NCBI GenBank assembly: GCA_964350645.1
Contig: CAYGJY010000001.1
Location: 142,316-206,315, forward strand
Length of the DNA stretch: 64,000 bases
Source: an uncultured Candidatus Saccharibacteria bacterium
GTDB lineage: Bacteria; Patescibacteriota; Minisyncoccia; Phycocordibacterales; UBA918
Direction: 5' to 3'
Shown here: piece after piece, positions 4,849 to 33,936 of the stretch
Layout of the letters: each line of letters starts with the position of its first letter
Position numbering within the stretch: position 1 is the stretch's first letter
The notes under the pieces: model-generated
What the model saw: the letters and a program-made list of their open reading frames with translations, nothing else
What the model was told of the DNA's origin: nothing
Databases searched by the model: none
Translations under genes and position numbers: made by a program

Positions 4849-4871
4849 TCGTCTCTAATTACATTTATAGT

Positions 4872-8643: not shown

Positions 8644-9396
8644 ATGCAATTTCTATTCTTCGCGATTGTAGTTTTCGTCTTGGTATTTCCAATCAAACTC
8701 TTGCAGATAATTGCTCGTAGGCTGTTCGCACAACCAGTGTCACTTTTCTGGTCTGCTGCTGTGGTGAGTATTTTTTATGTGGCATCGCTTGCTCTGACAT
8801 TCCTGAGTTCCCTCTTGTTTTCGATGAATCTCTGGGCGGAAATAGTGTTGTTGTGTTCGTTACAATTTGGACTGTTACTGCTCTTGATATATATGCTGTT
8901 GTCAGCCCCCTCGTTAAAGCGGGCAGCTGCCGTTACTGGTCTGCATATATGTGGGGGTATTATATGTACGTTAGTGTTTGTGATCGTTGTGCGACTGTTT
9001 TTGTTCTCACCATTCGTTGTCTCTGGCGAAGCTATGAGCCCAGGGTATGTTACCGGTGATTACTTAGTTATAAATCTACTACAAGAAAAGTATCAGCCAG
9101 GAGATGTCGTCGTTTACAAGTATCCTAGAGACCCATCAAGGTTCTTCATTCATCGGATAGTAGGTGTCCCTGGTGATCAGGTGAGAATAGAAGATGGCAT
9201 ATTGTATATAAATGGTGAGCCTGAAAGCGGTTACTTTCATACAGCAATGGATAAGTCTACGAACCTCGAAGAACGACTCGGTCGCGATGAGTATTTCCTC
9301 ATGGGGGATAATCGTGATCACAGTAGTGATTCACGTATTTTTGGAGTGGTGCAAAGAAAATTCATCCAAGGTACACCTGTCAAATTTGGTTTCTAA
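8644..9396 (+). CDS. lepB: Signal peptidase I (S26) with an extended multi-helix hydrophobic N-terminal region
   Basis: The catalytic Ser box SGEAMSPGY and the C-terminal GDNRDHSSDSRIFG box are present. The start is uncertain: the listed ORF begins at 8626, inside the rpoC terminator, and 8644 is the first ATG after it. Confidence 0.7.
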   Translation: MQFLFFAIVVFVLVFPIKLLQIIARRLFAQPVSLFWSAAVVSIFYVASLALTFLSSLLFSMNLWAEIVLLCSLQFGLLLLLIYMLLSAPSLKRAAAVTGLHICGGIICTLVFVIVVRLFLFSPFVVSGEAMSPGYVTGDYLVINLLQEKYQPGDVVVYKYPRDPSRFFIHRIVGVPGDQVRIEDGILYINGEPESGYFHTAMDKSTNLEERLGRDEYFLMGDNRDHSSDSRIFGVVQRKFIQGTPVKFGF

Positions 9397-9454
9397 TTAG
9401 GCTCTTTTTAGCCATTTAGCGTTGATTGCCGATTTCGCGTATAATAGCTTCATT

Positions 9455-21367: not shown

Positions 21368-21442
21368 ATGTAGCCATTAGAATACCAGAAAACACACGAA
21401 TCGGTAGGGGATTTAGCCTAAAACAAATACATTTTGTAATAT

Positions 21443-21470
21443 TTGACAATTTACAGATTTAAAGTATTAT
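21443..21470 (+). promoter_or_regulatory. Candidate sigma-70 promoter (TTGACA, 16-nt spacer, TATTAT) driving the small lipoprotein-like ORF and the structured element downstream
   Basis: TTGACA is at 21443-21448 and TATTAT at 21465-21470. A GGAG RBS sits before the ATG at 21538. Confidence 0.3.
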
Positions 21471-21537
21471 TTTTCAGTCACGGAGGAGAGTTGGGAAGCC
21501 CTCCAAAGTGACATTCCGACCAACTGAAGGAGTGATC

Positions 21538-21696
21538 ATGAAGATCTTGTGTGTATTGGCGACCCTTTTGGTTGCTGCAGCATGCGCGACGCCACCTGGC
21601 GTTGTGTCACCAAATCGAGAAAAACCGCTTGGGGCGAATCCTCAACCGGTGAAGCCGATGAAGATCGTAAGACCGTCGACATCGCACTGGATTTGA
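21538..21696 (+). CDS. Small (52 aa) lipoprotein-like/secreted Pro-rich peptide
   Basis: The peptide MKILCVLATLLVAAAC has a signal-peptide and lipobox-like N-terminus. It follows a good RBS (gaaggagtgatc) and the stop is immediately followed by a 9-bp GC stem-loop. It could be spurious. Confidence 0.25.
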   Translation: MKILCVLATLLVAAACATPPGVVSPNREKPLGANPQPVKPMKIVRPSTSHWI

Positions 21697-21956
21697 TCCA
21701 CCGGGCGCCCCTTTATGGGGCGCCCACCGGGTAGACGACCAAAATCGTCTGTGGTATGATCCTTACATGATCCTCCTGGTCGGATCTGCTACTCGGGAGC
21801 CTGGCTTCCCACCATATCGTCGGGATTCGACGATAGAGGTTCTCGAGCTTCTTTTAGGCGGCTGACGCGCAATCCGGTGCGTCGGCCGCTACAAAGGCCG
21901 GTAACTATCTTTTGCACACTGGTGCAAGGACAAAGACAAGTTATCCGGCCTTTTTT
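21697..21956 (+). ncRNA. GC-rich, highly structured non-coding element ending in an intrinsic terminator (candidate cis-regulatory leader, riboswitch or small RNA) upstream of the sulfotransferase gene
   Basis: Multiple nested hairpins are present. They are gggcgcccc/ggggcgccc at 21703-21725, atcgtcg/cgacgat, and gcggctgacgc/gcgtcggccgc. The last contains a U-G wobble that forms only on the + strand. A further hairpin ttgcac/gtgcaa is enclosed by ggccggtaac...gttatccggcc, which is followed by TTTTTT at 21951-21956. Confidence 0.3.
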
Positions 21957-22039
21957 CGTGCAAATTTTTTATGGTAGTGGTCACAAAATTAAAGTGTTTT
22001 ACATTTACAAGGCAGTCTATTTACACTATTATCATATAA

Positions 22040-22873
22040 ATGATGACTCCAAAGAACGACCAGACACTGATCTTATTCGGGGGACTACCACGCAGTGGTT
22101 CAACGGTGCTGGGTGAAATACTAGCCCAGAATCCGCAGGTGTATGTTTCACCGACGAGTGGTCTCCTGGCGACAGTCGACCTACTGTGGCGGCAGTGGGA
22201 TAGTATTTCGCAGCACACTGTCGTGCCCCATGAAGAGAATCGTCGTAATGTACTGCAGGCAACTATTGCCAGCTACCATCAGCATCAGTCAGCGCCGTAT
22301 GTAATCGATAAGTCACGTTGTTGGGCCAATCGATTGGAGTTGCTGAATGATTTATTGGGGTACAAAGTTAAACTCATTGCTCCGGTACGCGATGTACGAC
22401 AAATTCTCGCGAGCTTTGAGCAGCTGTGGCGGACAGAGTCACGCATACGCTGCATTAAGCAAGAGCAGCAAGCCGGAGTTTCTTTTCAGACGCTTGAAGG
22501 GCGGATGGCGTACTGGATGTCACCAGCTGAAGCCGTGGGGAAGGCACATAACTCACTCGTGGATGCCTGTCGGCGCGGACTGCAAGACCAGATACTATTT
22601 GTTGACTATGAGCGACTGCTGGCTGATCCGCAAGGAGCTCTCGACACAATCTATCGCTTTCTTGATCTGGAAGCCTGTACACACGATTTTGCAACCATAA
22701 CGGATCGTTTTACAGAAGACAGTTTGGTCTACGGTATTCGTGATTTGCATACTATCCGTCCAGCATTGTCGCCTTCGCAGACGAAGTGGGAAGAGCTCCT
22801 TGGTCCGGCCGCTGAGCAGTACGCTGAGCACAACTTTTGGCTGCATTCACAACTGAATCTACATACTATCTAA
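22040..22873 (+). CDS. Sulfotransferase-family protein (PAPS-dependent type)
   Basis: The N-terminal 5'-PSB loop is LILFGGLPRSGSTVLGEIL. The product is 277 aa with a sulfotransferase-like architecture. Its GC is modestly above the genome average. Confidence 0.6.
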   Translation: MMTPKNDQTLILFGGLPRSGSTVLGEILAQNPQVYVSPTSGLLATVDLLWRQWDSISQHTVVPHEENRRNVLQATIASYHQHQSAPYVIDKSRCWANRLELLNDLLGYKVKLIAPVRDVRQILASFEQLWRTESRIRCIKQEQQAGVSFQTLEGRMAYWMSPAEAVGKAHNSLVDACRRGLQDQILFVDYERLLADPQGALDTIYRFLDLEACTHDFATITDRFTEDSLVYGIRDLHTIRPALSPSQTKWEELLGPAAEQYAEHNFWLHSQLNLHTI

Positions 22874-22896
22874 GCTATTGACTTTTTAATATAACT
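22868..22896 (+). promoter_or_regulatory. Candidate promoter (TTGACT, 17-nt spacer, TATAAA) upstream of the high-GC lipoprotein gene
   Basis: TTGACT is at 22868-22873 and TATAAA at 22891-22896. Confidence 0.25.
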
Positions 22897-23018
22897 GGTG
22901 TATAAAGTACGCACCAACTCACCAATTCTTAATGAATCAGGGTGGGGTGTTCTTCAGGTCTCACAAGGCCTATTAAATGCAACGCGCCCAAGCGAGGCGC
23001 TAAACAAGGACTGAAACG

Positions 23019-23591
23019 ATGAAGATGCTCTATGTTTTGTTGACTGTTCCGTTTATCCTCGGCGCTTGCGGCGCTGAAACCACCGGGACGGCGAGCGCTC
23101 CGGCGCCGGATGCGCCGGCGGCTGAGACTGTCGCGGTGACGGAATCGACTGCCCCGGCGACCAAGCCGGTCACTGAGGTCGATGTCGCGGCGGCTCCGAC
23201 CGAGCCGGCGCCGGCCGCTTCGGAAGAAGTTGAGGTCGCGGCGGTGGAGCCGACGGCTCCGACCGAGCCGGTCCCGGCCGACCCGCGGATGAAGGCGGCT
23301 GCCTTCATGGCTGCAGTCACGAGCTGCGAGGTCAGCACCGGCACGGTGCCGATGTCATTCATCGGCGATGAGACGGGGGGTTCCATGGTGGTGGGCGCAG
23401 GGCGCATCACGGTTCCGTACCGCATGAAGCTCGATGGTGATGGTGAGCTGGTTTTCCAGCGGGACTACCAGGGTTGGGGCACCCGCCCCTTCGAAGTCCG
23501 CAAGGACTCTGTGTGGCTCCGGGGGGACAGCTCTGATTTCGATTGCCCTGTGCCGCAGGAAGTCGCCGCACGCTTCAATGCGGAGACCTGA
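23019..23591 (+). CDS. Lipoprotein with an Ala/Pro/Thr/Glu-rich linker and a small C-terminal globular domain; very high GC, probably horizontally acquired
   Basis: A lipobox is present (FILGAC) and the linker is low-complexity APAPDAPAAETVAV. GC3 is heavily biased (gcg/ccg/gcc codons) at ~68% GC against ~45% in the flanks. Confidence 0.55.
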   Translation: MKMLYVLLTVPFILGACGAETTGTASAPAPDAPAAETVAVTESTAPATKPVTEVDVAAAPTEPAPAASEEVEVAAVEPTAPTEPVPADPRMKAAAFMAAVTSCEVSTGTVPMSFIGDETGGSMVVGAGRITVPYRMKLDGDGELVFQRDYQGWGTRPFEVRKDSVWLRGDSSDFDCPVPQEVAARFNAET

Positions 23592-23595
23592 GAGT

Positions 23596-23655
23596 GGCGG
23601 GGGCGGGTGCTTGCATCCCGCCCCCACCGAACGATGCATTCATTGAATGCCACCG
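23596..23655. terminator. Two consecutive GC-rich hairpins after the high-GC gene, between it and the convergent SagB-like gene
   Basis: The first is gggggcggg-tgcttgcat-cccgccccc. The second is tgcattca-ttgaatgca. Confidence 0.45.
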
Positions 23656-23671
23656 TTAGAGAAAACCATCT

Positions 23672-24391
23672 CTAGCGGTTTTCTTTTGTCTCGACGTCGG
23701 TTTTTCCAAGGGCAAGGGTGTAGATGACATGTTCTGAGCCAGCGATTGTTACAAAAGAGTCATCAAGGAGATCATACAACGGTGCTCCGATAGCCCGGCA
23801 GCCGATGTTAAGTGCGGCAGCAGTTAAATAAATATTTTGTCCGATATGACCAGCTTCGAGGAAAGCGTGTGTATACCCCAGGGTGCCGTATTGAAATAAA
23901 TTGCGGGCTTTTACATGACTGATACATATATATAAAGAAGCACGTTCGATCTTTTCTGGGTCTGGCATTCGACCGCCTATGTCTGGTGCGGATCGACTCA
24001 ACAAGTCAAGGCTATGTTCTTTCGTGTTGTAGTAGTAGGTGCCGGTAGCAAGTGCCGGAGTGTCTTTGGGGACGACTAGGTAGAGATTTAGTGGTTGTAA
24101 GCCGCCAGCTGAAGGAGCGGGGCGTTTGTCTACATCACTCGTTGTGTAGGAGGACAGAAGAATGGTCTCAATCTCGGTGAGTGATAGAGATTCAGTGGTT
24201 GAAAAGGTTTGGGCGGACTGACGAGCAGCTAGTGCGTCACTAAGAGAGATGGGTAGTGGGTTTGGTTCTCTTAGTGGGGTACTCTCATATGTATTGCGGA
24301 GTTGGTTGTCGGCCTGTTCGTAGAGTGCACCAATATTCGAGTGACGGTTCGCTTTTATAAATGAAAAGAAATAGTCCATAGGCTTAGGCAA
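23672..24391 (-). CDS. SagB/McbC-type FMN-dependent dehydrogenase (nitroreductase fold), the azoline oxidase component of TOMM-type pathways
   Basis: A nitroreductase-family core AFLEAGHIGQNIYLTAAALNIGCRAIGA is present along with YLVVPKDTPALATGTYYY. The start overlaps the stop of the upstream YcaO gene by 8 nt. Confidence 0.7.
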   Translation of the reverse strand: MPKPMDYFFSFIKANRHSNIGALYEQADNQLRNTYESTPLREPNPLPISLSDALAARQSAQTFSTTESLSLTEIETILLSSYTTSDVDKRPAPSAGGLQPLNLYLVVPKDTPALATGTYYYNTKEHSLDLLSRSAPDIGGRMPDPEKIERASLYICISHVKARNLFQYGTLGYTHAFLEAGHIGQNIYLTAAALNIGCRAIGAPLYDLLDDSFVTIAGSEHVIYTLALGKTDVETKENR

Positions 24392-25883
24392 AAGGATGAG
24401 GAACAGTATTGATAGTGTCTTTAGTTAATGGTTTGTTGTACTGTGCTTCGTAGAATTTTTGTAGTCTAGGTTGGTTGATTGGTCGTTCAACATCGGCAAA
24501 ATACATATCAATCATATCAGGACTCATCATGCGAACTACTTTGAGTCCATGAGCTTGCGCTAAGGGAGTGGTTTGATCGACCGTATACATAGTAATATTT
24601 TTTCTACGCAAAAAACTTCTGAGCGACAGGTATGTGTTTGGGATACTACTCAGATCAAACTGCGCTTGATAATCCTCAAATGAGATAGTAGTACCCGAGA
24701 TGAAAAAATCAGCCAGAGCGATAATTTGTGGGGTAGACCAAAACCGGTTGCGGTCTTGGATTGATTCTAGATTTGAACCTTCAACCCCCCATGAATATTG
24801 TTTTTCAGGCTGCTCATAGACGTGTGGCCATTTCATAATACTGTACTGTAGTTTTTCAAGCATTGCATGGATGTCAGCGCCCGCGACACCACTCAGTCTA
24901 AGGATAGACGAACGTTTACGATCAACGAGTACCATAATGAGTGATGGGATACCAAGGTCAGTACTACAATCAAGCAGATGTATGTCTAAGTCAGCCTGCT
25001 TTGTTTCAGTAATAAATTCCTGGAATGATGGGACAGTAATTGAGCTCAAGTCGATCTGTTTTGGTGCCGTTGTCGTGAGCCAGTGCAGCAGGAAGCCATC
25101 ACGTTCGATTAGCTCAAAGAAGCCACGCAGGCATGCCTGATCATAAGATGTGTAGGTAGCACAACCGTTAGTATTAGAGCTGCCGAGTAAGGTGCGGTTT
25201 TGGGGGTTTTGATACTGGTAGTAGAGATGGGTTAGTGCCACTGGTAGGTAGACATTTTTTTTGGTTACCATATTTCTCCCAGCTACCCAGTATTCATTTT
25301 TATACAAGGTGTCATCGTATGAGCCGTAATAGGTAAAGAAACTGGGTGCAATATACGTGGAGTCGTCTAAAAAAGAAGGATTGATGTGCCAGTCTGAGTA
25401 GTTGGTTGCGACACCGCTGATTCTTTCGATTGTTTCAGCTAGCGCCACTGTCATGGCCTCGTTATGGCTTTTGTGGGCACTGGACGCCCAGAGATTATGA
25501 AACAGGTGTGGAGCTTGAGGGTTTGGCTGGAGTTTTAAAACTGCCAGAGGCACTCGAGGAAAGCCTGGAGACATAAAGCCAAACGTCCAGTGCGAGACAT
25601 AGCCATCCTGCAGAAGTTTCTCTAAGGTTAGACGATTAAGTGTAGAAAGGGTCTCCAATTCATCATGTTTGCTCTGCAGATAAATTTTACTTTTTGTCAG
25701 TCTTTCAAGTAGGAGACAAAGTTTCCTGGTGATATAAACTCGACAACGATTAGTGAGATTGTCTGGATAGAAGGTTGATTGACTAACTCGGGCCTGATCA
25801 GCAATACGGCTTTCGCTGGTAATAACTTTCTGTAGAGAAATAGTATCAGAGTCGTGTTGGGCTAGTCTGCTCATGTACGACAC
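24384..25883 (-). CDS. YcaO-domain ATP-dependent cyclodehydratase with an N-terminal extension and a proline-rich C-terminus
   Basis: YcaO signature motifs are EAMTVALAETIERISG and FFELIERDGFLLHW. The C-terminus ends ...VPHPFA, a PxPxP-like tail typical of azoline-forming YcaOs. The product is 499 aa. Confidence 0.75.
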   Translation of the reverse strand: MSYMSRLAQHDSDTISLQKVITSESRIADQARVSQSTFYPDNLTNRCRVYITRKLCLLLERLTKSKIYLQSKHDELETLSTLNRLTLEKLLQDGYVSHWTFGFMSPGFPRVPLAVLKLQPNPQAPHLFHNLWASSAHKSHNEAMTVALAETIERISGVATNYSDWHINPSFLDDSTYIAPSFFTYYGSYDDTLYKNEYWVAGRNMVTKKNVYLPVALTHLYYQYQNPQNRTLLGSSNTNGCATYTSYDQACLRGFFELIERDGFLLHWLTTTAPKQIDLSSITVPSFQEFITETKQADLDIHLLDCSTDLGIPSLIMVLVDRKRSSILRLSGVAGADIHAMLEKLQYSIMKWPHVYEQPEKQYSWGVEGSNLESIQDRNRFWSTPQIIALADFFISGTTISFEDYQAQFDLSSIPNTYLSLRSFLRRKNITMYTVDQTTPLAQAHGLKVVRMMSPDMIDMYFADVERPINQPRLQKFYEAQYNKPLTKDTINTVPHPFA

Positions 25884-25899
25884 TCTACACCGAAAGTGT

Positions 25900-27075
25900 T
25901 TATTGTGTCCAATCCGTTAGAAAAGCAATATTTTGGTCGAATTCAGCAAGCGAGATTGTACGAAGAGCTGAAACGTCATCTTGTGTAAGGTCATAAATTT
26001 CCACTCGAGCATTGCGGTTGCTAGGATCGTTGTCGATAACCTGCAGAGCCAGATAGCGCCCTTCTGGTGAAATAGTTGGCCAGATGGTCTGCACATCATT
26101 TTGCGCAAATTGGAAGACGGTACGAAGTGCTACTGGTGCAGCGTTAGAGCTCTGATCGTTGTCCTCAATCTTAAATACTGTCAACCTGTTGATGGTACTG
26201 CTGTCTTCTGATGGATCAGTCAAAAGCAGATACTCACCATCTGGACTGATAGTAATCTGACTTCCATAACCAAGTCCTGTCTGTAGAGGATTCCAGAGAT
26301 TGTAGATAGAGTTTTCAGGATCTTTAACATCAATCACATAAATACCATCAGTCTTGATCACAAAAACAAAATTGTCATCTTTTGACCAAGTTGGATACGC
26401 TGCGTTTTGCGCTAGCACCTGTTCGTCGCTGCTGCCGGTGATAAGTATTGCGTCCCAATTGTCTAGATCACGAAAAGCGAGTATGTCTTCCAGGGCTTCT
26501 GTACCACGCTGTTGTGAAAAAAGTATTTTAGTAGCATCAGTATTTGCAATTTGAGGAAGTCTTTTTCTAATTATTGGAGTGTCATTACTTGTGACAGCAG
26601 TGGTTAGTTGAGTGATTCTTTCTTCATCTTTGACAAAGATTTGTGGGGTGACGGGTTCAGTAACTTCTACTGCCATAGTGGTTGAGATAGCCGGAACTAG
26701 TGCAGCATAGGCTACTACACCAAGTGGGCTAGAATCGTAGGTATAGGCGATGTTTGTGATTTCAGTATTCTGACTGATTGAATTTGATTCAAAGTCGTAT
26801 GTATGTAATTGGTAGGGTAAAAAATCGCTAGCCTGACTAATTTCTTCATCAGCAAGAGTTATATGAAGTGAGCCAGATAACTCTTCTAGAGGGTTTGAGG
26901 CCGTGTATTGATTAGGTACGGTAACAACGTATGTTGGACGAACATCTTCAGGTGACTGCACCTGTGGAGTCAGTGTTGTTGGTTCAGTGACTGAGAGTAG
27001 ATTTGTGGCGTACCAGACTGTCAATCCACTGAGTAGTAGAATTATCAATAAAAGAACTAAGTGTACTTTTTTCAT
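25900..27075 (-). CDS. Secreted beta-propeller protein (TolB/PD40-like repeats)
   Basis: An N-terminal signal/TM segment (MKKVHLVLLLIILLLSGLTVW) is followed by repeated ISPDGEYL / ISPEGRYL blades. Confidence 0.45.
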   Translation of the reverse strand: MKKVHLVLLLIILLLSGLTVWYATNLLSVTEPTTLTPQVQSPEDVRPTYVVTVPNQYTASNPLEELSGSLHITLADEEISQASDFLPYQLHTYDFESNSISQNTEITNIAYTYDSSPLGVVAYAALVPAISTTMAVEVTEPVTPQIFVKDEERITQLTTAVTSNDTPIIRKRLPQIANTDATKILFSQQRGTEALEDILAFRDLDNWDAILITGSSDEQVLAQNAAYPTWSKDDNFVFVIKTDGIYVIDVKDPENSIYNLWNPLQTGLGYGSQITISPDGEYLLLTDPSEDSSTINRLTVFKIEDNDQSSNAAPVALRTVFQFAQNDVQTIWPTISPEGRYLALQVIDNDPSNRNARVEIYDLTQDDVSALRTISLAEFDQNIAFLTDWTQ

Positions 27076-28604
27076 ATAACAGTATTAGAATTTACCTGAT
27101 ACATCTCATCGAGAAGTTGTTGCGAATCTTTGTCGAGACTTTGTAACCACGTAGCTGAGACCTTGGGCATTCCGCCAGGAAGTGGTCCGTATACACCTCC
27201 GAAGTCAAATACAAAACTACGCGTCATGTCTTTGTCTAGTGTGTGCTTGTATGATGCTGGGGCGGTAAACTCTAGTTCAATCCGGTCTTGAAACTTAGCG
27301 TAGACAAACTCGCTGTTATTTTTTTTGCTCAACTTTGCTTTAACAACGGCAGGCTCGTCTGCGGTTGTGGTAGTAAGAACTTCTGAGAGTTCAAACTTTT
27401 CTTCGGTGGTTTCATTTTTAAGAGCCTCAGTTTCAGACACAGCAGGGAATGCAGACAGTAGCTGATGGTTTTTAGTAGCTTCAACAGTTGCATTCACTTG
27501 CCCGTCAGCGGCTATGAATTCGGCTGGGATTTTAATTGCTGTCTTAGTTGCGGCAAAATATCGTGGCTCAATCACAACGGTCTCACTTTTGGTGCCGTCT
27601 TTACTAAAGGTAACTAATAAGGACTTATTGCCAGTAGAAACAGCGTCAGCTTGGGCAGTTTTGATTCCAAAAGAGTCCATAAATGATTTGTCTTGAGGAG
27701 TATCCTGGTTGGTACTCATAAATGATCCAACCAACATAGATAAGGTTCCGGCGAGCATGAACTTACCTAGCTTACTTTTACGAGATGTAAAAGGGGAGGC
27801 TGTAAGGACACCGGCTTCTTGCTGTGGGTAGACGTCGTCGATATGCCAATCCCGGTAGACAGAACTTATAATCAAGTATGTATCAACAGCCTGATCAGCT
27901 ACGAAGGTAAATGAAGCCACATCACCATTACGTAGTGTGCTTTGTTCCTTACTAGCTGAAGGGCAGATGCGGGCAGTCTCAGTAAGTTTTGTATTAGCTC
28001 GATAGACAGTTGCTTCTGTCCCGGCTTTTTCAGATTCTGAGATTGATTTTTTAGAGAAATAAATAGGGGTACCATAATTGCAGTCGACAACGGGTTCAAG
28101 ATTTGCGGGGTGAGTGATTGCTGTGATGCCAACAAAGTCATAGAGACTTTCTTCTGGCTCAATCTCTTGAATCATAAGTTTCACTTTGCCATCTTGGTCT
28201 ACGTGGAGTGGTTTTTGGAGAACATACTTATCAGGAATAATCTCACCAGCGAGATATAGCTCTTTACCGACGCTTAGTACAGGAAAGTGTGAACGCGGCT
28301 TCCCAAACATTACATCGTTGTCCATTACGTATTTTTGTCCGTCCCAGGCGTAGAGAAAAGGGGTTGAGTATGGTCCACCATCACCACCACCACTACAGGA
28401 ACCTGTGCAGCCCGAACAGCCCCCGGCACAGAGGCTGAATAACATTAGGGGGTAGCCACCAAGTAGAGCAGCAAATTCTGAACCAAAAAGGAAGCTAGCT
28501 ACAACAATAATGAAGCCAGTCAAGATTTTTATACACGCTTCTGGCCCTATGTTGCTGATAATTTGACGAGTTTGTGTCAGAAATAGTAGTTGATAAGTAG
28601 GCAT
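27072..28604 (-). CDS. Membrane-anchored protein with a juxtamembrane Cys/Gly/Ser-rich segment (CAGGCSGCTGSCSGGGDGG); otherwise of unknown function
   Basis: Two N-terminal hydrophobic helices are followed by the Cys/Gly/Ser-rich stretch (nt 28374-28430) and then ~430 aa of uncharacterised extracytoplasmic domain. The stop overlaps the start of the beta-propeller gene. Confidence 0.5.
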   Translation of the reverse strand: MPTYQLLFLTQTRQIISNIGPEACIKILTGFIIVVASFLFGSEFAALLGGYPLMLFSLCAGGCSGCTGSCSGGGDGGPYSTPFLYAWDGQKYVMDNDVMFGKPRSHFPVLSVGKELYLAGEIIPDKYVLQKPLHVDQDGKVKLMIQEIEPEESLYDFVGITAITHPANLEPVVDCNYGTPIYFSKKSISESEKAGTEATVYRANTKLTETARICPSASKEQSTLRNGDVASFTFVADQAVDTYLIISSVYRDWHIDDVYPQQEAGVLTASPFTSRKSKLGKFMLAGTLSMLVGSFMSTNQDTPQDKSFMDSFGIKTAQADAVSTGNKSLLVTFSKDGTKSETVVIEPRYFAATKTAIKIPAEFIAADGQVNATVEATKNHQLLSAFPAVSETEALKNETTEEKFELSEVLTTTTADEPAVVKAKLSKKNNSEFVYAKFQDRIELEFTAPASYKHTLDKDMTRSFVFDFGGVYGPLPGGMPKVSATWLQSLDKDSQQLLDEMYQVNSNTVI

Positions 28605-28679: not shown

Positions 28680-29651
28680 TTATAGTGTAGCGGTAATAAT
28701 GTGCGAAATGTCGTCGCAGCTATATATGGTTATGTCTTTAAGATGGGTATTCTCGCAGATTGATTTCCAGTCACTGAGTGTTCGAAGTCCGGTTTGATTG
28801 GTTAATGTATGCACGTGTTGGTATACCGCAACCAGTTTTCTCGTCTCAGCGTTAAGTGAGTTCAATTGCTCATCTGTAAAATAGCTTTGTTCTGCAAAAA
28901 GTAACTGGGCGCCAGGGAAATGATTTTGAAGCGAAGTTATGTAGTTTATAAATTCAGAATTAGTCGGTGTAATTTCATGTAGTACTGTCATAAAGGTAAT
29001 GAGGCACCCTGCGTAGGCAGCCTTCCCCCCTAGTCCTGCTCGGTCTTTCCAATCGATAATATCTTTGACGTCAGCTTTAATAAACTGGAATTGTTCTCTT
29101 AGCGACCGATACGGTTCTCCCCGATCAATACCAATGAGTTTTATGTTTTTTGCTTCTAGCTGGGAAAGAAATGCCCCTGAACCACAACCAAGATCAATAA
29201 TAGTATGAGGATCAGAAAGCTTTGGGAGTATTTCCTTATTGATCTTAGTGACAAACTTTTGGCTATATATTTCACTTGAAATATTAAGTGCTGAGCTTGT
29301 TGCCGATCCTATTAGAGTTGCTGCAGAGAGGTTTTCATCAGATGTCTTTGTTAGTACGTCATGATAGGCTTCAGTAAAATGTAATAAATTTTTTACCTGG
29401 TCGGTAACTAAGCTTTTTCCTGCAGTAACAAATATTCCGTCATAGCTAAGGTAATTGTTATCATAGTTACTAAGAAAAGTGCAGAGGTTGTGAATGTCAC
29501 TGAGATTGATATTCTTATTTTTTACCCAGTGAGAAAGTTCGATCCGTGTGTGCTCACTTAGTTCACTTAGTAACCCGTAACGTTGCAGTTTTAGTAATTG
29601 AGAAAAGAAGCACCAGTTAAAGACGAGGTCAGAGATTGGTAATTTGTTCAT
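28680..29651 (-). CDS. Class I SAM-dependent methyltransferase
   Basis: Motif I IIDLGCGSGAFLSQL and a post-I acidic residue (IGIDRGE) are present. The start is uncertain because the listed ORF (to 29702) overlaps the upstream gene. Confidence 0.6.
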   Translation of the reverse strand: MNKLPISDLVFNWCFFSQLLKLQRYGLLSELSEHTRIELSHWVKNKNINLSDIHNLCTFLSNYDNNYLSYDGIFVTAGKSLVTDQVKNLLHFTEAYHDVLTKTSDENLSAATLIGSATSSALNISSEIYSQKFVTKINKEILPKLSDPHTIIDLGCGSGAFLSQLEAKNIKLIGIDRGEPYRSLREQFQFIKADVKDIIDWKDRAGLGGKAAYAGCLITFMTVLHEITPTNSEFINYITSLQNHFPGAQLLFAEQSYFTDEQLNSLNAETRKLVAVYQHVHTLTNQTGLRTLSDWKSICENTHLKDITIYSCDDISHIITATL

Positions 29652-30804
29652 ATAATTTTTCACGTTCAGTTTGCGTTGCTGCTGTGATATAGAAGAATAC
29701 ACGCCCTAAGTGGCCAGTAAAAAACATAAAAGGTATCACACCACGGGCTGAGGCTTTCGAGAAAAGTATACCGCGATTACGACATTGCTCAATTAGGGTA
29801 TCGATTGGTATGTGTTTCCAGTCTGGATTAGACACTTCAAGTGCTACATACGGCTGTTTAGTCGCGATTTTTTCATAGATACCGTATGCATATGAGGAGA
29901 TGACTCGACGAGGATTTGCTTCAACCCAGAGTAGGCCACTTGATTTTGAGAGAATGGCGTTTAGGCCAAGGTGACCACGGTAGCCCATCTTTTGGTAGGC
30001 AGAACCTATTTTTACGGCGTCGCGTTCGATTACTTGGCGAAGTTCAGGATCGATTGTATGGTACGACTCACAGCCTCGATATGAGCGTTTGTTCTGGTAA
30101 AAAAGTTGATTATGAAGCGATAGGGTCTGCACCGCTGCCCCGGTAACTAGTAGTTGTATACTAGGTGAGAGTGATACATCTGGAATCCAAGCCTCTACGA
30201 TATATTTACCAGTTCCTGTTAACTCGTGAGCGGGCCGAATGTCTTTATGGGTGCTTATGGCGTGGTGCAGGGTGTCTGGATTATATACCTCGGCATTTAA
30301 ACCACTTACGCCGTCCTCAGCTTTAATGATGACACTGTTGTTACCTGACCAGAAGAGACGCATTATCTTTACGTAATTCAACCACTTACTTGTGCGGGCT
30401 ACGTGACTGCCGGCTGGTGTAGAGATGTCAATATTGGCACATATTTTCTTAAACAAGGCTTTGCTTACAAAATCGTTATAGCAGCTTGGTATAGTGACAG
30501 ATCCTAGTTGTTGCGCGAGTGTTTCTTCTTTCTCAGTCCAGTTAAATACATCGAGTTCGGTTGGGGTAATGGCAGTAATTTGCTTGAGTGAGTTGCCGCT
30601 GATTGGGTTAGTAACAGTGCGAAGTTCTTCAGGTATGATCCCAATTTCTGCATAAAACGCACATAGTTTTGGGCTTTCATAGGGGATAACCACTGTAGTA
30701 TCAGGGGTGCTGAATACTAAGCCAGAAAATCCAAAATGAGTGATGTCTGTATTAGTAGTGTGCTTAAAAGGGATGTGGAGTCGATGCCAAATTACTGATT
30801 CCAT
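29629..30804 (-). CDS. ATP-grasp-fold enzyme (peptide/amide ligase-like)
   Basis: The segment VIIKAEDGVSGLNAEVY has an ATP-grasp Lys and Gly-rich loop. The C-terminal LWVEANPRR is an E-x-N Mg/ATP motif. Confidence 0.5.
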   Translation of the reverse strand: MESVIWHRLHIPFKHTTNTDITHFGFSGLVFSTPDTTVVIPYESPKLCAFYAEIGIIPEELRTVTNPISGNSLKQITAITPTELDVFNWTEKEETLAQQLGSVTIPSCYNDFVSKALFKKICANIDISTPAGSHVARTSKWLNYVKIMRLFWSGNNSVIIKAEDGVSGLNAEVYNPDTLHHAISTHKDIRPAHELTGTGKYIVEAWIPDVSLSPSIQLLVTGAAVQTLSLHNQLFYQNKRSYRGCESYHTIDPELRQVIERDAVKIGSAYQKMGYRGHLGLNAILSKSSGLLWVEANPRRVISSYAYGIYEKIATKQPYVALEVSNPDWKHIPIDTLIEQCRNRGILFSKASARGVIPFMFFTGHLGRVFFYITAATQTEREKLYEQITNL

Positions 30805-30865: not shown

Positions 30866-31693
30866 ATGACTGGAAAACGTATTAGTTATTATGTGACTGT
30901 ATTTAGTATCTGTACGATAGCAGGAGTAACTTACTTTTTTTTAATGGAGAGAGGTGACTCAGCTTTATACAAGGAAAATTATGATGCTGTAAACATCAGT
31001 GATACAGCAACGACTGAAGAATTGTTTCAAAAAGGTGAATATTACTTCAATCACGATGATGATCCGGCTGGTCCGTATGATATCAAAGAGGCGCGACGGT
31101 ACTATGAAGCGACGATTCGAAAAGATCCGCAAGCAATCGGGGCAGCCTGGTATCAGTTGGGCCGGATTGATTTTATTGAAGGAAAATTCAATGCAGCGTT
31201 GTATAAGTTTGAAAAATTAGAAGAGTATTTTCCAGAATCAGAAAGTAATATCAATCCTAACTACATGGCGGGATTGGTGTATGGTTATCAAGCTAGAAGG
31301 ACGAAAGACCAAGCTGACTGGGACGCTGCAGAGGCTGCTTTTGTTGACTATATAGAGTATGAACCGTATGCACCGTGGCCGCGGGTTGATTTAGCCTGGA
31401 TATATTTTGCACAGGGGAAGTTTGAGGAGATGAAGCCAGTACTAGGTGAAGGTCTCGTTTATGATGGCGATAATGCTTGGTTGCACAATATGTATGGACT
31501 GGCGATGCTTAATACTGGAGAAAAAGCAATTGCTCAAGAGCATTTTGGTTTTGCTGCTACGCTAGCTGAGGCACTCACACCGGAAGATTGGGGACAATCA
31601 TATCCGGGTAATAATCCCGCAGACTGGGAACAGGGTTTGGAAGAATTTAAAATTGCGATCCAGAGAAATCAAAATTTGGCAGCAGTTGAGTAA
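30866..31693 (+). CDS. Membrane-anchored TPR-like repeat protein
   Basis: An N-terminal TM helix is followed by helical repeats with TPR-like spacing (ARRYYEATIRKDPQAIGAAWYQLGRIDFIEGKFNAAL). Confidence 0.4.
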   Translation: MTGKRISYYVTVFSICTIAGVTYFFLMERGDSALYKENYDAVNISDTATTEELFQKGEYYFNHDDDPAGPYDIKEARRYYEATIRKDPQAIGAAWYQLGRIDFIEGKFNAALYKFEKLEEYFPESESNINPNYMAGLVYGYQARRTKDQADWDAAEAAFVDYIEYEPYAPWPRVDLAWIYFAQGKFEEMKPVLGEGLVYDGDNAWLHNMYGLAMLNTGEKAIAQEHFGFAATLAEALTPEDWGQSYPGNNPADWEQGLEEFKIAIQRNQNLAAVE

Positions 31694-31716: not shown

Positions 31717-33936
31717 ATGCATCGGTTAGTGCCAGTTTTGGCGTTTTTATCAGGAGTCTGTGGAATTGCTTATGAGTTACTGTACTTCAGGATAATCAGC
31801 GCTTACTTAGGAGATATTTTTTATGTCGGTGCCGCAGTGGTAACTGTTTTTTTTCTCGGTATAGCCTTCGGGTCTTTATACGCTACTGATAAGTATCGTT
31901 ATTTGCCACTTGCAGAGTTTGCCTTAGGGGTTTATGCCATCATTGTAAGTTTCGGACTTCTGCATTTTGGATTGTCTATCACGACAGCCGTCGCACAGTT
32001 ACCTTTCTCTGAAATGATGAATCTGCTTGTAGCAGTTTTTGTAATCCTCGTACCGCCAGCATTTTTGGTCGGTCTGACGGCTCCATGGTTTGTATTTTAT
32101 GTCAGAAACACGAATTTATTTGTCAATAATTTTAGTATCGTGTACTGGCTATACAATCTTGGGGCGGCAGCTTCAGTTTTGTTGGTTGAGTACGTTTTCA
32201 TTAGGTCTTTGGGAATTTCAGCCAGCTTACTGCTAGTGAGCGTTATTAATTTTATTGTCGCTGGGACTCTGTTTCGAATCAAGGCTCCCGCAAAGGTTTC
32301 TGGGGAGATTGTTGCAAGAAACACCGTACCACAACAAGCTGTGCTTCTGCTCAGTGCACTTAGTTTTGTTAGTGGGATACTCCAAATGCTCGTTTTATAT
32401 CAAGTTATTCGCTATGTGGGTCCAATAGCAGAGAATTTTGCATTGTTTATGGTGGCTACACTAACGAGTATTTCAGTCGGAACAGTACTGGTTAGTTATG
32501 GTCGCATTAGTTTCGCTACTATTTGTTTGTGGATTCCGGCCATTATCGGAGTACAGTTTTTGTTGTTGCCTGAATTGATCTGGCTTTATTCAGTGCTATA
32601 CACCAACGGTGGAGTATTTCTAGGCAAGCTGTGTTTAATTGGGTTACTGGTAGTGCCAGTATTCAGTTGGTTTGGAGCAACCGCCGCAGCGTTAGTTGAA
32701 GAGCATAAGATCGCTCACACAGGTTGGGTGTTAGCTGTTACTGCTGGGAGTAATGTATGTGGCTTTTTAGGTTTTTTATTAGTGTTACATCGACCAGACG
32801 TAGCGTTATCTTGGATCATTTTTGGTTGTGGAGTTGGCATCGGTTTGCTAGTGCTGTTCTCAAGACCGTATGCTCTTAACGTATTACTGGTGTTAGCGCT
32901 TAGTGTGGTTTTGCTTGTCAGCGTGCTTGTCCGTTGGCCATCATATCTCGATTCAGTTGCTTATCATAAGGTCCCGGAAACTGTCATGCAGGGGGATGTT
33001 TTTTCAGATGAGACGTTACTGGTAGAGCAGCAATTTGGAGAAGATGTGCGGGTAGTACGTTCAGCAGTAAACAACGATGTGGTGAGATTGCAGTTCAACG
33101 GGTATCACTCATTAACTATCGGACCAGGCACAAACGCCGTTCGTAATGAAGCATTTGTCGGTATCGTAGGCTCTCATTTTACGGCCGCCACTGAGTCCGC
33201 GTTAGTGCTTGGGTTGGGGGCTGGCTTTACAACAGCAGCAGTAGTTGATCGGTATGACACCGTGACAGTGGTTGAGATTAACCCCTTAATGAAAAAGATA
33301 GTCACCTATTTTTCTAAAGAAAATAATAGTGTGAGCTTGGCGAAAAATCTAACAGTCCTTGAACAAGATGGGATCGTCGCACTCGCCAATAGTGCTGAAC
33401 AGTATGATTTAGTCGTGAATACCGTGACTACACCAGCTTATTTTTCAGCTAATAAATTGTGGACGGCAGATGTGTTTGATTTGATCAAACAGCGTTTAAG
33501 TCCCGGTGGTGTGTTTGTCGGGTGGCTCGACAGTCGGTTGGGTGATGTCGGTACCAATATCATGCTCGACACGCTCGAGTCGGTCTTTGCCGAGTGTTCA
33601 TACGCCTATATCAATCAGGAATATTTTGCTTTTGTGTGTAGTGATGGACCACTGACGCATCAAGATCGATCGTGGCCGGCCGATTACTTTAGTGGCCTGT
33701 TAGCTGAAGATTGGCCAGGAGTGTCCGAAATTTTGCTACTTGATTCGCTTATGTTTGATCATGTCCAGCCTGAATCAAGTGCAAAAATGATCAATACGCT
33801 GGACCATCCGGTGTTGTCATATTTAGTACTTAAGCAGGATCTGAGGTCATCAACATTCTCGAGGACAGCACTGGTTGAGTCATTTGCAGCGAAAGATCGT
33901 AGCAGTAGCAGTCAGTCAATTTTAGATCAATGGTAA
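31717..33936 (+). CDS. Polytopic membrane domain fused to a spermidine-synthase-like (aminopropyltransferase-fold) C-terminal domain
   Basis: ~12 TM helices are followed by VLGLGAGFTTAAVVDRYDTVTVVEINPLM and LSPGGVFVGW, a spermidine synthase-like Rossmann domain. Confidence 0.5.
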   Translation: MHRLVPVLAFLSGVCGIAYELLYFRIISAYLGDIFYVGAAVVTVFFLGIAFGSLYATDKYRYLPLAEFALGVYAIIVSFGLLHFGLSITTAVAQLPFSEMMNLLVAVFVILVPPAFLVGLTAPWFVFYVRNTNLFVNNFSIVYWLYNLGAAASVLLVEYVFIRSLGISASLLLVSVINFIVAGTLFRIKAPAKVSGEIVARNTVPQQAVLLLSALSFVSGILQMLVLYQVIRYVGPIAENFALFMVATLTSISVGTVLVSYGRISFATICLWIPAIIGVQFLLLPELIWLYSVLYTNGGVFLGKLCLIGLLVVPVFSWFGATAAALVEEHKIAHTGWVLAVTAGSNVCGFLGFLLVLHRPDVALSWIIFGCGVGIGLLVLFSRPYALNVLLVLALSVVLLVSVLVRWPSYLDSVAYHKVPETVMQGDVFSDETLLVEQQFGEDVRVVRSAVNNDVVRLQFNGYHSLTIGPGTNAVRNEAFVGIVGSHFTAATESALVLGLGAGFTTAAVVDRYDTVTVVEINPLMKKIVTYFSKENNSVSLAKNLTVLEQDGIVALANSAEQYDLVVNTVTTPAYFSANKLWTADVFDLIKQRLSPGGVFVGWLDSRLGDVGTNIMLDTLESVFAECSYAYINQEYFAFVCSDGPLTHQDRSWPADYFSGLLAEDWPGVSEILLLDSLMFDHVQPESSAKMINTLDHPVLSYLVLKQDLRSSTFSRTALVESFAAKDRSSSSQSILDQW

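Follow-up and report, generated by a model that had tools for sequence, protein, structure and literature searches.

Protein X, the 510-aa membrane protein that carries the Cys/Gly/Ser tract CAGGCSGCTGSCSGGGDGG, is probably itself the substrate of the YcaO/SagB pair encoded beside it. We place the probability at about 0.55; the case is a comparative one, and the chemistry is that which we infer for enzymes of this type. X rather than a small peptide is the likely substrate because cysteine occurs in the X linkers only where YcaO/SagB is encoded next door. Based on established TOMM/LAP chemistry, the SagD-type YcaO would use ATP to convert linker Cys, and possibly Ser/Thr, to azolines, which the SagB-type flavoprotein would oxidize to azoles. 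The product would be a rigid or metal-binding poly-azole segment, uncleaved and kept in full-length X, where it would anchor a beta-sandwich domain at the membrane. Members of the subfamily whose tract is N-terminal may be modified further by an ATP-grasp ligase and a methyltransferase.

A Cys/Gly/Ser tract in a two-domain membrane protein

The window is the whole 64-kb stretch of DNA that was analysed. The initial annotation placed a Cys/Gly/Ser tract at 28374-28430 in a 510-aa ORF, and both the coordinates and the translation match exactly. The tract is aa 59-77 of the minus-strand ORF at 27072-28604, in the context MPTYQ...LFSL-C59...G77-PYSTPFLY. The ORF is intact, and a 100% identical copy is present in NCBI and Logan assemblies. 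X is organized as follows.

27072-28604, minus strand: protein X, membrane protein with two beta-sandwich domains, 510 aa (AF2 mean pLDDT 81, pTM 0.75)
28482-28532, minus strand: hydrophobic segment h1, aa 25-41, which pairs with h2, aa 44-58 (28431-28475)
28437-28451, minus strand: leader-like motif P52-L-M-L-F56 (P-h-h-x-h), right before the tract (sequence comparison)
28374-28430, minus strand: the tract, core of junction 1 (J1, aa 57-79, 28368-28436), candidate cyclodehydration substrate
28359-28367, minus strand: S80-T81-P82, start of domain 1 (family alignment)
27840-28367, minus strand: beta-sandwich domain 1, aa 80-255 (AF2 and alignment)
27720-27782, minus strand: middle hydrophobic helix, aa 275-295 (AF2)
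27645-27656, minus strand: A317-Q-A-D320 motif (A-x-A-D/E) of junction 2 (sequence comparison)
27090-27632, minus strand: beta-sandwich domain 2, aa 325-505, with invariant R348, H380 and G470 (AF2)

The tract is real and exceeds chance expectation. Cys makes up 0.9% of the window proteome (55 ORFs), in which no 19-aa segment other than the tract has 4 or more Cys together with 17 or more C/G/S/T residues. None of 300 residue shuffles (0/300) yielded a comparable Cys/small-residue window. A search of the 64-kb window, covering every ORF of 25 aa or longer, for 20-aa segments with 4 or more Cys and 16 or more small residues recovered the X ORF alone. The composition is microcin B17-like, that is, Gly-rich with Cys and Ser in G-C, G-S, S-C and C-S contexts, and is also seen in subfamily A homologues such as L007, L083 and L082. 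The four Cys of the J1 tract (C59, C63, C66 and C70) lie in G/S/T context, and the next residue is A, S or T each time. AF2 predicts that the tract is disordered (pLDDT 35-47), so it would be sterically accessible. Assignment of X as a lipoprotein, with the tract Cys as the +1 residue of a lipobox (L-[ASTVI]-[GAS]-C), was rejected since the -1 residue is usually Leu (L-x-L-C) and Ser or Gly replaces Cys in several homologues.

The tract had been described as directly following a second TM helix. It does follow two hydrophobic stretches, h1 and h2, which are separated by a short polar/acidic turn (S42-E43), and this layout is kept in subfamily A. However, AF2 models aa 2-39 as one helix and aa 40-79 as coil.

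X has no Pfam or NCBIfam match. It founds a family that, clustered at 50% identity, has 298 representatives. Here the family appears in Patescibacteria alone, and 10/10 genome loci of X are from Patescibacteria MAGs. Each X has two junctions, in which a hydrophobic helix is followed by a leader-like motif, a low-complexity linker and a beta-sandwich domain. The leader-like motif is either A-x-A-D/E-x-P or P-h-h-x-L/G, and the latter precedes the tract at junction 1 in subfamily A and at junction 2 in subfamily B. In X, junction 2 consists of A317-Q-A-D320, a short linker (A321-V-S-T-G-N-K327) and the near-invariant S328. Within domain 1, N96, E147, E149 and E151 are invariant, and D97 and R251-D252-W253 are near-invariant; Foldseek matches to this domain are weak (jelly-roll, Eph-LBD or CBM-like). 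Subfamily B carries an equivalent Cys tract in mid-protein, between two conserved domains, which rules out the reading that subfamily B is tract-less and YcaO/SagB unrelated to the tract. In L010 the junction 2 tract reads VQCGCSCAC, and the locus has its own YcaO and an MT-SagB fusion.

Cues to the topology of X conflict. The middle helix has a family mean Kyte-Doolittle value of 1.73 (best 19-mer), with K+R of 2.33 upstream vs 1.33 downstream, and by the positive-inside rule the tract would be cytoplasmic. Conversely, subfamily C N-termini resemble Sec signal peptides of the cleavable kind, and the partner proteins lie outside the cytoplasm. Enzymes that depend on ATP and FMN could act on an extracytoplasmic tract only if they modified it before export.

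X could instead be a pro-protein. A leader and modified core of about 80 aa would be heterocyclized and then cut at S-(T/C/S)-P, or between A-x-A and D, releasing a membrane-anchored or secreted azole peptide and leaving the 430-aa body to serve as a carrier, a chaperone or a domain for self-processing. In the alignment of 96 family members, residue 81 is always T (73), C (18) or S (5), and P82 occurs in 94/96. Restriction to T/C/S is the pattern expected of a nucleophile in N-to-O/S acyl-shift autoprocessing. Furthermore, A-x-A followed by D/E/G resembles signal-peptidase sites and comes directly after a short h-region in subfamily C. The free-standing Cys-rich precursors of some related genomes (see below) stop right after the core, showing that a leader-plus-core unit can function alone. 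Against cleavage, which we consider improbable, no protease is conserved in the operon, and excision of the mid-protein tract of subfamily B would split X. The start of domain 2 also has a conserved Ser/Cys (S328), which suggests a structural role in capping a strand and not a point of cleavage.

The operon and its putative modifying enzymes

Six minus-strand genes form the operon, with a TPR gene on the opposite strand beyond it.

29629-30804, minus strand: ATP-grasp ligase, 391 aa, of a narrow subfamily found only beside subfamily A X
28680-29702, minus strand: class I SAM methyltransferase, 340 aa, tied to subfamily A X
27072-28604, minus strand: protein X
25900-27075, minus strand: TM-anchored PD40-like beta-propeller, 391 aa, translationally coupled to X
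24384-25883, minus strand: YcaO cyclodehydratase, 499 aa, with a 138-aa N-terminal domain that has no family match (Pfam YcaO E = 8e-40)
23672-24391, minus strand: SagB-type FMN dehydrogenase, 239 aa (TIGR03605, 95.8 bits, above the 78.4 cutoff)
30866-31693, plus strand: TM-anchored TPR protein, 275 aa, divergently oriented, near X in most loci

The initial annotation was right that X lies two genes upstream of YcaO and that the gaps are 75 nt or less. Reading along the minus strand, from ATP-grasp to SagB, the successive gaps are an overlap, 75 nt, an overlap, 16 nt and an overlap. A promoter/terminator scan gave nothing above chance, with no minus-strand terminator within the operon. The propeller gene is kept beside X of subfamilies A and C, and the TPR gene accompanies X of all three subfamilies in most loci with a long enough contig. 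The X operon conserves neither a peptidase nor an ABC exporter. The tie of the ATP-grasp and methyltransferase genes to the N-terminal-tract subfamily had not been weighed in the initial annotation.

The best NCBIfam match of the YcaO is TIGR03604, SagD (E = 2e-48), at 165 bits, which is below the cutoff of 219. Its nearest solved structures are those of the azoline-forming LynD, TruD and MusD. The ATP-Mg residues E150, E153, E257, E260 and R261 are invariant in 20 homologues. A proline-rich C-terminus is defined for TOMM/LAP YcaO proteins as PxPxP. The window YcaO ends in ...VPHPFA, and P-H-P is invariant. N-x-x-P-H-P-F/M-x is found in 20/21 homologues, L009 having P-H-P-F without the Asn, and the third Pro is missing in all homologues but one. 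At the position of the catalytic pair the window SagB has Q-Y-G, where 20/21 family SagBs have K-Y-G; the role of the Lys-Tyr pair and the McbC mechanism have been described (PMC6395948). Because of the Q-Y in the window SagB, a product that stays at the azoline stage is plausible. With the YcaO motifs and P-H-P invariant, LynD/TruD/MusD the nearest structures and SagB above its cutoff, the enzymes look competent and of the azole type. The sub-cutoff SagD score and the Q-Y of the window SagB count against X as the substrate of the pair.

Azoline-forming YcaOs normally require an E1-like/RRE partner. No E1-like, Ocin-ThiF or RRE partner was found among the operon genes (Pfam, NCBIfam) or conserved neighbors. 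The N-terminal 140 aa of YcaO matched no consistent Pfam family in 16 homologues, even at E up to 5, and the window YcaO has no fused E1-like domain. Thioamidation of McrA and of thioamide RiPPs involves delivery of sulfur by a TfuA-type partner. TfuA was absent from the operon and the conserved neighborhood, and the YcaO is always paired with SagB.

The N-terminal tract could also be primarily a substrate of the ATP-grasp and methyltransferase, for example for ligation or cross-linking plus methylation, with YcaO/SagB acting elsewhere on X (e.g. S80-T81 or S328) or on another target. All ATP-grasp matches (14/14) and 16/17 methyltransferase matches adjoin X with an N-terminal P-h-h-x-L tract, and a reverse search from the ATP-grasp returns only such loci. 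A word-indexed search for distant ATP-grasp relatives with discrete precursors gave the same narrow subfamily only. The P-h-h-x-h motif matches the graspetide leader signature, P-h-h-x(1,2)-h, of Makarova et al. 2022 (PMC8939145). That work also notes ATP-grasp branches with YcaO and SagB that have no identified precursor. In its 'branch 6' and candidate-phyla-radiation branches, ATP-grasp occurs with YcaO and a SagB-like nitroreductase, and many loci have no identifiable precursor. Its candidate-phyla-radiation loci include TPR proteins and UbiE-like methyltransferases. The X locus resembles them in these associations. The work does not propose protein X as a precursor.

Several results argue against the ATP-grasp as the principal enzyme, and we doubt this alternative strongly. 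Many subfamily A tracts lack the Asp/Glu or Lys to activate or attack. The only PDB matches of the ATP-grasp are the amino-acid/peptide ligases BesA and PGM1, both weak (E about 1e-3). In loci L001 and L025 the J1 tract is Cys-rich and neither an ATP-grasp nor a methyltransferase gene lies upstream, and the Cys/YcaO correlation described below holds in subfamily B, which has no ATP-grasp. Graspetide systems combine an MdnC-type ATP-grasp with a core in which Thr/Ser and Asp/Glu (or Lys) pairs are conserved. The operon has no MdnC-type ATP-grasp match, and many tracts contain no Asp/Glu at all; the leader-like P-h-h-x-h motif is all that is shared.

Co-occurrence of linker cysteine and YcaO/SagB

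In 29/35 informative lineages, the YcaO and SagB genes are no more than 3 kb from X. Gene order varies (ATP-grasp-methyltransferase-X-propeller-YcaO-SagB vs ATP-grasp-methyltransferase-YcaO-SagB-X-propeller vs YcaO-SagB-X-TPR) while membership is constant, and membership is retained at only 20-45% protein identity. The initial annotation had named a tract found only where YcaO/SagB is present as support for a substrate relationship, and this is the pattern observed. Linker Cys is present in 25/29 lineages with the pair vs 0/6 lineages without it (Fisher p = 1.3e-4). Lineages were below 70% identity and treated as independent, and a 50% identity cut gave the same result. Four lineages with the pair have Cys-free linkers, and X persists in the six that lack it. 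In L013, an X with minimal linkers has the remnant of a SagB pseudogene immediately upstream.

The presence of YcaO/SagB was predicted from linker sequence before look-up in six extra contexts, and the prediction held in 4-5/6. P0080, P0100 and P0115 have extended or Cys-bearing linkers and, as predicted, the pair. P0099 and P0143 have minimal Cys-free linkers and, as predicted, lack it. P0118 was predicted to be negative yet has the pair; on inspection its J1 carries an extra Cys. A column-wise comparison of S/T/C between subfamily B proteins with and without YcaO gave no informative position. X and YcaO identities correlate (r = 0.95, Mantel p about 5e-4, mirror-tree); this was not counted as independent evidence because the shared species tree gives the same result. 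The comparison favors the proposal that the heterocyclase acts on X, but the YcaO/SagB linkage extends to the entire X family and both linker junctions rather than to the J1 tract alone.

The absence of a small Cys/Ser/Thr-rich precursor from the operon, noted initially, was borne out, and no small ORF with a C/S/G-rich tail occurs anywhere in the 64-kb window. No conserved small precursor ORF was found in more than 25 divergent X-linked operons, in which gaps are at most about 110 nt, and a comparison of 85 loci revealed no family of small ORFs that is conserved. When 2,151 small ORFs from 81 loci plus the window were clustered all-vs-all, the only clusters were artefacts of tRNA regions, near-identical loci, ribosomal protein S20 and a SagB pseudogene.

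Cys-dense small-residue windows in about 1 Mb are confined to X proteins and five free-standing ORFs of 92-113 aa (L004/L030, two in L009, and L032). In these ORFs a TM helix and a spacer lead to A-x-A-D/E-P, and the C-terminal core is rich in Cys and Gly. Such conventional-looking short precursors thus occur in related genomes, but they adjoin only a second, divergent YcaO/SagB pair, which in L004 is present in addition to the X-linked one. In leader layout they match the A-x-A-D junctions of X, and the cores are alike (CADASCSNCG vs CADACCSNGNC). Pairwise BLAST of a free-standing precursor against the X N-terminus was not significant (E = 0.32), so the leader resemblance rests on layout and the A-x-A-D/E-x-P motif. 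The free-standing ORFs look like unfused versions of the X junction module rather than a refutation of X as substrate.

A less probable explanation, which we rate as unlikely though the strongest of the alternatives, is that the tract is a flexible, perhaps metal- or disulfide-forming, juxtamembrane stalk. Together with the TPR protein and the propeller, X would then make up a complex in the envelope with a receptor, exporter or immunity function for a LAP-type peptide; the precursor of that peptide would lie elsewhere or have been missed. The distal tract is slippage-prone, as poly-Ser differs by 8 aa between the otherwise identical L004 and L030. Some tracts are nearly pure Gly or consist of (SP)n or (GQGSYY)n repeats typical of passive spacers. 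Retention of X without YcaO/SagB in six lineages, the signal-anchor N-termini of the partner proteins and the signal-peptide-like N-termini of subfamily C X also fit a stalk. Some related genomes do encode short Cys-rich precursors, and a LAP cluster from a candidate-phyla-radiation genome has an 84-aa precursor (PMC7298704). On the other hand, linker Cys vanishes exactly where YcaO/SagB is absent, the tightly spaced X-linked operons conserve neither a precursor ORF nor a peptidase or ABC exporter, and the short precursors belong to the other YcaO pair. The initial suggestion of a metal-binding loop with a precursor elsewhere is weakened.

Taking X as the substrate, a broader model can be put forward tentatively, with odds slightly below even. 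The YcaO/SagB pair, without E1/RRE, would read the embedded leader-like motifs (A-x-A-D/E-x-P and P-h-h-x-L/G) and make the linkers poly-azole. In this model the module would also exist unfused, as the free-standing Cys-rich mini-proteins, and the modification would be a lineage-wide envelope feature.

Relation to known modification systems

The X system would be TOMM/LAP-type chemistry acting on a full-length protein. To our knowledge, YcaO enzymes act on full-length proteins only in forming thioamides, and YcaO/SagB azoles are known from small ribosomal peptides. Modified X would, as far as we know, be the first azole-containing natural product that is a protein and not a peptide, and no natural example of a large protein as substrate of an azole-forming enzyme was found in the literature. 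If X is the substrate, azole heterocycles would join the natural post-translational modifications of proteins, and a mode of leader recognition independent of an E1/RRE partner would be implied. It would also explain the precursor-less 'LAP clusters' and ATP-grasp/YcaO clusters mined from candidate-phyla-radiation genomes. Finally, it would point to a specialized rigidified or metal-binding envelope component in a group whose cell-surface biology is little understood.

X resembles microcin B17 and other LAPs (McbA with McbBCD; SagA with SagBCD) in its Gly/Ser/Cys-rich segment, in the co-encoded SagD-type YcaO and SagB-type dehydrogenase and in the P-x-P at the YcaO C-terminus. In contrast, the X locus has no short leader-core precursor, E1-like scaffold (McbB/SagC), leader peptidase or exporter. 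Its candidate core is internal to a 510-aa membrane protein with a folded domain after it, and its YcaO scores below the SagD cutoff. Among candidate-phyla-radiation genomes, Sharrar et al. 2020 (PMC7298704) described 110 LAP clusters, with YcaO beside a nitroreductase in Parcubacteria and Microgenomates, including the one with the 84-aa precursor and a peptidase. The free-standing ORFs probably correspond to that kind of precursor. Protein X, its two-junction architecture and the ATP-grasp/methyltransferase association are not mentioned there.

YcaO proteins act on large folded proteins in forming McrA thioglycine and the uL16 backbone thioamide (PMC13063428). These reactions are thioamidations by a YcaO without a SagB partner, unlike the X locus, where SagB is paired with a relative of azoline-forming YcaOs. 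A closer parallel in chemistry is MicD-F/ArtGox (Walker et al. 2022, PMC9052802), a cyclodehydratase/dehydrogenase pair that puts thiazol(in)es in the linkers of folded proteins without unfolding them. That system is artificial, engineered and leader-free; X would be its natural, genomically hard-wired counterpart.

Bufferins carry Sec signal peptides. In bufferins (PMC12452194) and peptides with NHLP/Nif11-type long leaders (PMC12455567), the N-terminal part is large or resembles a signal peptide, and the Cys-containing core after it is modified while still in the cytoplasm, ahead of export. There the cores are C-terminal and the products small, unlike X, in which 430 conserved folded residues follow the core.

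The Cys/Gly/Ser tract of X and its operon

Amino acids 59-77 of X, the 510-aa membrane protein encoded at 27072-28604 on the minus strand, read CAGGCSGCTGSCSGGGDGG and span exactly nt 28374-28430 in the translation of that ORF. Two hydrophobic stretches (aa 25-41 and 44-58) precede the tract and P-Y-S-T-P-F-L-Y follows it. Cys makes up 0.9% of the window proteome (55 ORFs), in which no other 19-aa segment reaches both 4 Cys and 17 C/G/S/T; 0/300 shuffles matched it. The operon is listed in order.

Genes of the X operon
29629-30804, minus strand, ATP-grasp protein, first
28680-29702, minus strand, methyltransferase, second
27072-28604, minus strand, X, third
25900-27075, minus strand, TM-anchored PD40 propeller, fourth
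24384-25883, minus strand, YcaO, fifth
23672-24391, minus strand, SagB-type nitroreductase, sixth

Neighboring genes overlap or stand at most 75 nt apart, no terminator-like site was found on the minus strand between ATP-grasp and SagB, and no small ORF with a Cys/Ser/Gly-rich tail occurs across the whole 64-kb window. The tract position, gene order, gaps and lack of such an ORF therefore bear out the description in the initial annotation, except that its "second TM helix" spans 15 hydrophobic residues whose TM status is uncertain. Its claim that the operon holds no short precursor extends to the entire window, and clustering of 2,151 small ORFs yielded no conserved family fit to be a precursor. 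Compared with canonical TOMM systems, in which a YcaO cyclodehydratase and a SagB-type FMN dehydrogenase form azol(in)es, the X system is without short precursor, E1/RRE partner, peptidase and exporter; it keeps the enzyme pair and the core composition. LAP-type YcaO/nitroreductase clusters are common in candidate-phyla-radiation genomes (PMC7298704), and ATP-grasp/YcaO/SagB loci without identifiable precursors have already been noted (PMC8939145). No published description of X or its junction architecture was found in the literature searched.

A segment at about 21400-23650, adjoining the 3' end of the operon, is higher in G+C (0.586 at 23-24 kb vs about 0.41-0.45 in the flanks); it may have been inserted from foreign DNA or mark a join in the assembly. 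On the strand opposite the operon it encodes a sulfotransferase (22040-22873, plus) and a lipoprotein that is rich in Pro/Ala and has a canonical lipobox (23019-23591, plus). After the TPR gene, 31717-33936 (plus) encodes a polytopic membrane protein of 739 aa whose C-terminal domain is spermidine-synthase-like (40.9 bits to NCBIfam fused MFS/spermidine synthase, cutoff 40); other loci do not conserve it beside X.

Junctions of the X family and linker Cys

Neither Pfam nor NCBIfam has a model that matches X. Searched by profile, 1.84 billion cluster representatives yielded 298 relatives, mostly 460-560 aa long and 124 of them at E <= 1e-30; among 185,579 species genomes X had ten matches, 10/10 in Patescibacteria MAGs. 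The AlphaFold model (alignment of 96 sequences; pLDDT 81, pTM 0.75) has a long N-terminal helix, a disordered region at aa 45-75 that includes the tract (pLDDT 35-47), and confident beta domains at aa 80-255 and 325-505 with a helix (aa 275-295) between them. The high pTM suggests that the two predicted domains pack together. Foldseek against the PDB returned nothing at E <= 1e-3; its matches were weak and of jelly-roll-like type (Eph ligand-binding domain, CBM-like). N96, E147/E149/E151, R348 and H380 are among the invariant residues.

About 110 N-termini and middle regions of X proteins were compared. Every X has two junctions of one design, in which one or more hydrophobic helices lead to a short motif (A-x-A-D/E-x-P or P-h-h-x-L/G), a low-complexity linker and the first beta-domain strand. 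The first (J1) ends at S80-T81-P82 and the second (J2) at S328. Three subfamilies were distinguished. In subfamily A, which includes the window, J1 carries P-h-h-x-L and a G/S/C/D-rich tract and J2 carries A-x-A-D (A317-Q-A-D320 in the window); in subfamily B, A-x-A-D is at J1 and J2 has P-h-h-x-G plus the tract; in subfamily C the N-termini are signal-peptide-like and the J1 linkers are long and S/T/Y/G-rich.

Position 81 (S80-T81-P82, nt 28359-28367) is T in 73, C in 18 and S in 5 of the 96 sequences, with no other residue; Cys there mostly accompanies His83 (C-P-H-V). Judging from the alignment, this nucleophile-only position at a domain boundary could be a site of modification or self-processing. 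Such a site would suit a pro-protein that is cut at the invariant S-(T/C/S)-P boundary to release leader and core, a reading we regard as improbable; the system has no peptidase.

Tract length is hypervariable, from 2 to about 70 aa. The distal parts resemble slippage-prone spacers, with poly-Ser variation and (SP)n and (GQGSYY)n repeats, and in the motif-proximal part Cys often recurs in patterns, for example L-C-x(2-7)-C-G-N or CADACCSNGNC. The spacer-like parts would fit a stalk that is passive or binds metal, the precursor then being encoded at another site; we doubt this reading, and the distribution of linker Cys speaks against it. Both linkers of all X with known context were scored, leaving out the conserved Cys that opens the domain-2 strand. 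Linker Cys was present in 25/29 lineages with adjacent YcaO/SagB vs 0/6 informative lineages without (Fisher p = 1.3e-4; <70% identity), and in 24/26 vs 0/5 at a 50% identity cut, counts drawn from lineages that are not fully independent phylogenetically. X identity tracks YcaO identity (r = 0.95), a correlation that common ancestry by itself would also give. The check named in the initial annotation, whether the tract occurs only where YcaO/SagB is present, came out in favor of the association. Of six further X-family members whose context was looked up after prediction from the linkers, P0080, P0100 and P0115 (extended or Cys-containing linkers) have YcaO and/or SagB upstream, and P0099 and P0143 (minimal, Cys-free linkers) have neither. 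The negative prediction for P0118, made from J2 alone, failed: YcaO and a methyltransferase-SagB fusion are present, and J1 on inspection has an extra Cys.

The favored reading, at slightly better than even odds (about 0.55), is that the X linkers, flagged tract included, would be substrates of the adjacent YcaO/SagB, with the modified segment staying in the protein. Thioamidation is a documented YcaO reaction on whole proteins (PMC13063428); azole installation in protein linkers is documented in engineered systems only (PMC9052802).

In L013, L033, L034, L035 and L038, related loci with minimal, Cys-free X linkers, broken small ORFs lie at about 9130-9770 directly upstream of X, with a 52-aa C-terminal SagB fragment ending in FCQLAVGQPQNK. 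This lineage appears to have lost YcaO/SagB by decay, which makes their absence secondary. The X of L004 (9944-11581) and of L030 (9944-11557) are identical except for an 8-residue poly-Ser deletion in the tract, whose length is thus polymorphic between samples.

Modifying enzymes and their neighborhoods

The best family match of YcaO is the SagD-type TOMM cyclodehydratase, below the curated cutoff, and its nearest solved structures are the azoline-forming LynD, TruD and MusD. Its ATP/Mg Glu/Arg motifs and C-terminal P-H-P are invariant in 20 homologues, and its 140-aa N-domain matches no family. Unlike LynD it has no fused E1-like domains, being only 499 aa, and no E1-like, Ocin-ThiF or RRE protein was found in the X neighborhood. 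SagB clears its family cutoff. Around aa 165-170 the window SagB (23672-24391) reads Q-Y-G, where 20/21 family members have K-Y-G. Since the replaced Lys belongs to the Lys-Tyr pair that is catalytic in TOMM dehydrogenases (K201/Y202 in McbC; PMC6395948), oxidation may be impaired or slowed and the product might be azolines rather than azoles. The missing E1/RRE partner and this Q-Y weigh against the substrate proposal of the initial annotation, while the Cys/YcaO co-occurrence and the lack of a precursor in the window speak for it; it keeps a probability just over one half.

The analysis drew on 85 loci in total; in the 81 plus the window that were covered by iterative profile searches, three layouts recur: ATP-grasp-methyltransferase-X-propeller-YcaO-SagB, ATP-grasp-methyltransferase-YcaO-SagB-X-propeller, and YcaO-(methyltransferase-)SagB-X-TPR-TPR. 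They persist at 20-45% protein identity with intergenic gaps below precursor-gene size. The ATP-grasp protein weakly resembles the amide-forming ligases BesA and PGM1. It adjoins subfamily A X only, as does the methyltransferase except for one weak match in L011, and searching outward from ATP-grasp recovered no other subfamily than this narrow one, again in the X context. This tight linkage could mean that the ATP-grasp/methyltransferase pair is the tract's main modifier, which we consider unlikely; L001 and L025 have a Cys-rich J1 with no ATP-grasp upstream.

In several subfamily B loci (L010 8404-9906, L069 8184-9686, L075 7628-9133, L091 4390-5907) the N-terminal part of SagB is a fused methyltransferase domain, about 250 aa long and HemK/PrmC-like (MTS-family), and in L036 a separate 208-aa methyltransferase lies between YcaO and SagB, so methylation goes with the azole enzymes in both subfamilies via unrelated methyltransferases. 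In some subfamily B loci (L088 619-1437, L086 2121-2987) the YcaO-SagB-X operon contains or adjoins genes of the Asp/Asn beta-hydroxylase-like or 2OG-Fe(II) oxygenase type, which could encode further tailoring enzymes. In L084 a 1039-aa fusion (2707-5826, minus) of an AMMECR1 domain, a long middle region and a C-terminal YcaO domain is oriented divergently to an ATP-grasp/methyltransferase pair that belongs to the X-associated subfamily.

Topology and free-standing ORFs

The hydrophobicity of the middle helix of X (mean Kyte-Doolittle 1.73) suffices for a TM segment. K+R averages 2.33 upstream vs 1.33 downstream, with an upstream excess in 56 sequences vs 10 with the opposite; under the positive-inside rule, J1 and domain 1 would lie on the cytoplasmic side. 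In subfamily C the N-terminus resembles a canonical cleavable signal peptide with A-x-A at its end, and the TPR and propeller partners start with signal anchors. No one topology suits all three subfamilies. Cytoplasmic modification of X followed by export is possible by analogy: bufferin-type RiPP precursors carry Sec signals, a precedent for modification ahead of export.

A composition scan, repeated under stricter limits, covered all ORFs of 25 aa or more in the collected loci plus the window (about 1 Mb). Cys-dense small-residue segments were confined to X proteins and five short ORFs, which come from three distinct loci and from L030, a duplicate of L004.

Free-standing Cys-rich ORFs
L004/L030, 2868-3209, plus strand, 113 aa
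L009, 1059-1382, plus strand, 107 aa
L009, 2819-3097, plus strand, 92 aa
L032, 6345-6653, plus strand, 102 aa

All four begin K/R-rich and continue with a TM helix, about 5-20 spacer residues and A-x-A-D/E-x-P; a Cys/Gly/Asp/Ser core of 40-55 aa then extends to the stop codon. None of this type occurs in the 64-kb window. A second, more divergent YcaO/SagB pair lies immediately beside the ORFs in L004/L030 and L032 and about 3-5 kb away in L009; in L004 it exists alongside the X-linked pair. These ORFs do not obviously serve the X-linked enzymes. Their leader layout and motif align with the A-x-A-D junctions of X, and we read them as a putative unfused form of the junction module; pairwise BLAST of a free-standing precursor against X was not significant (E = 0.32). 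Both L009 paralogues end in GDELY, and in L004 and L032 a helical protein with a TM anchor, about 380 aa long, follows each free-standing ORF.
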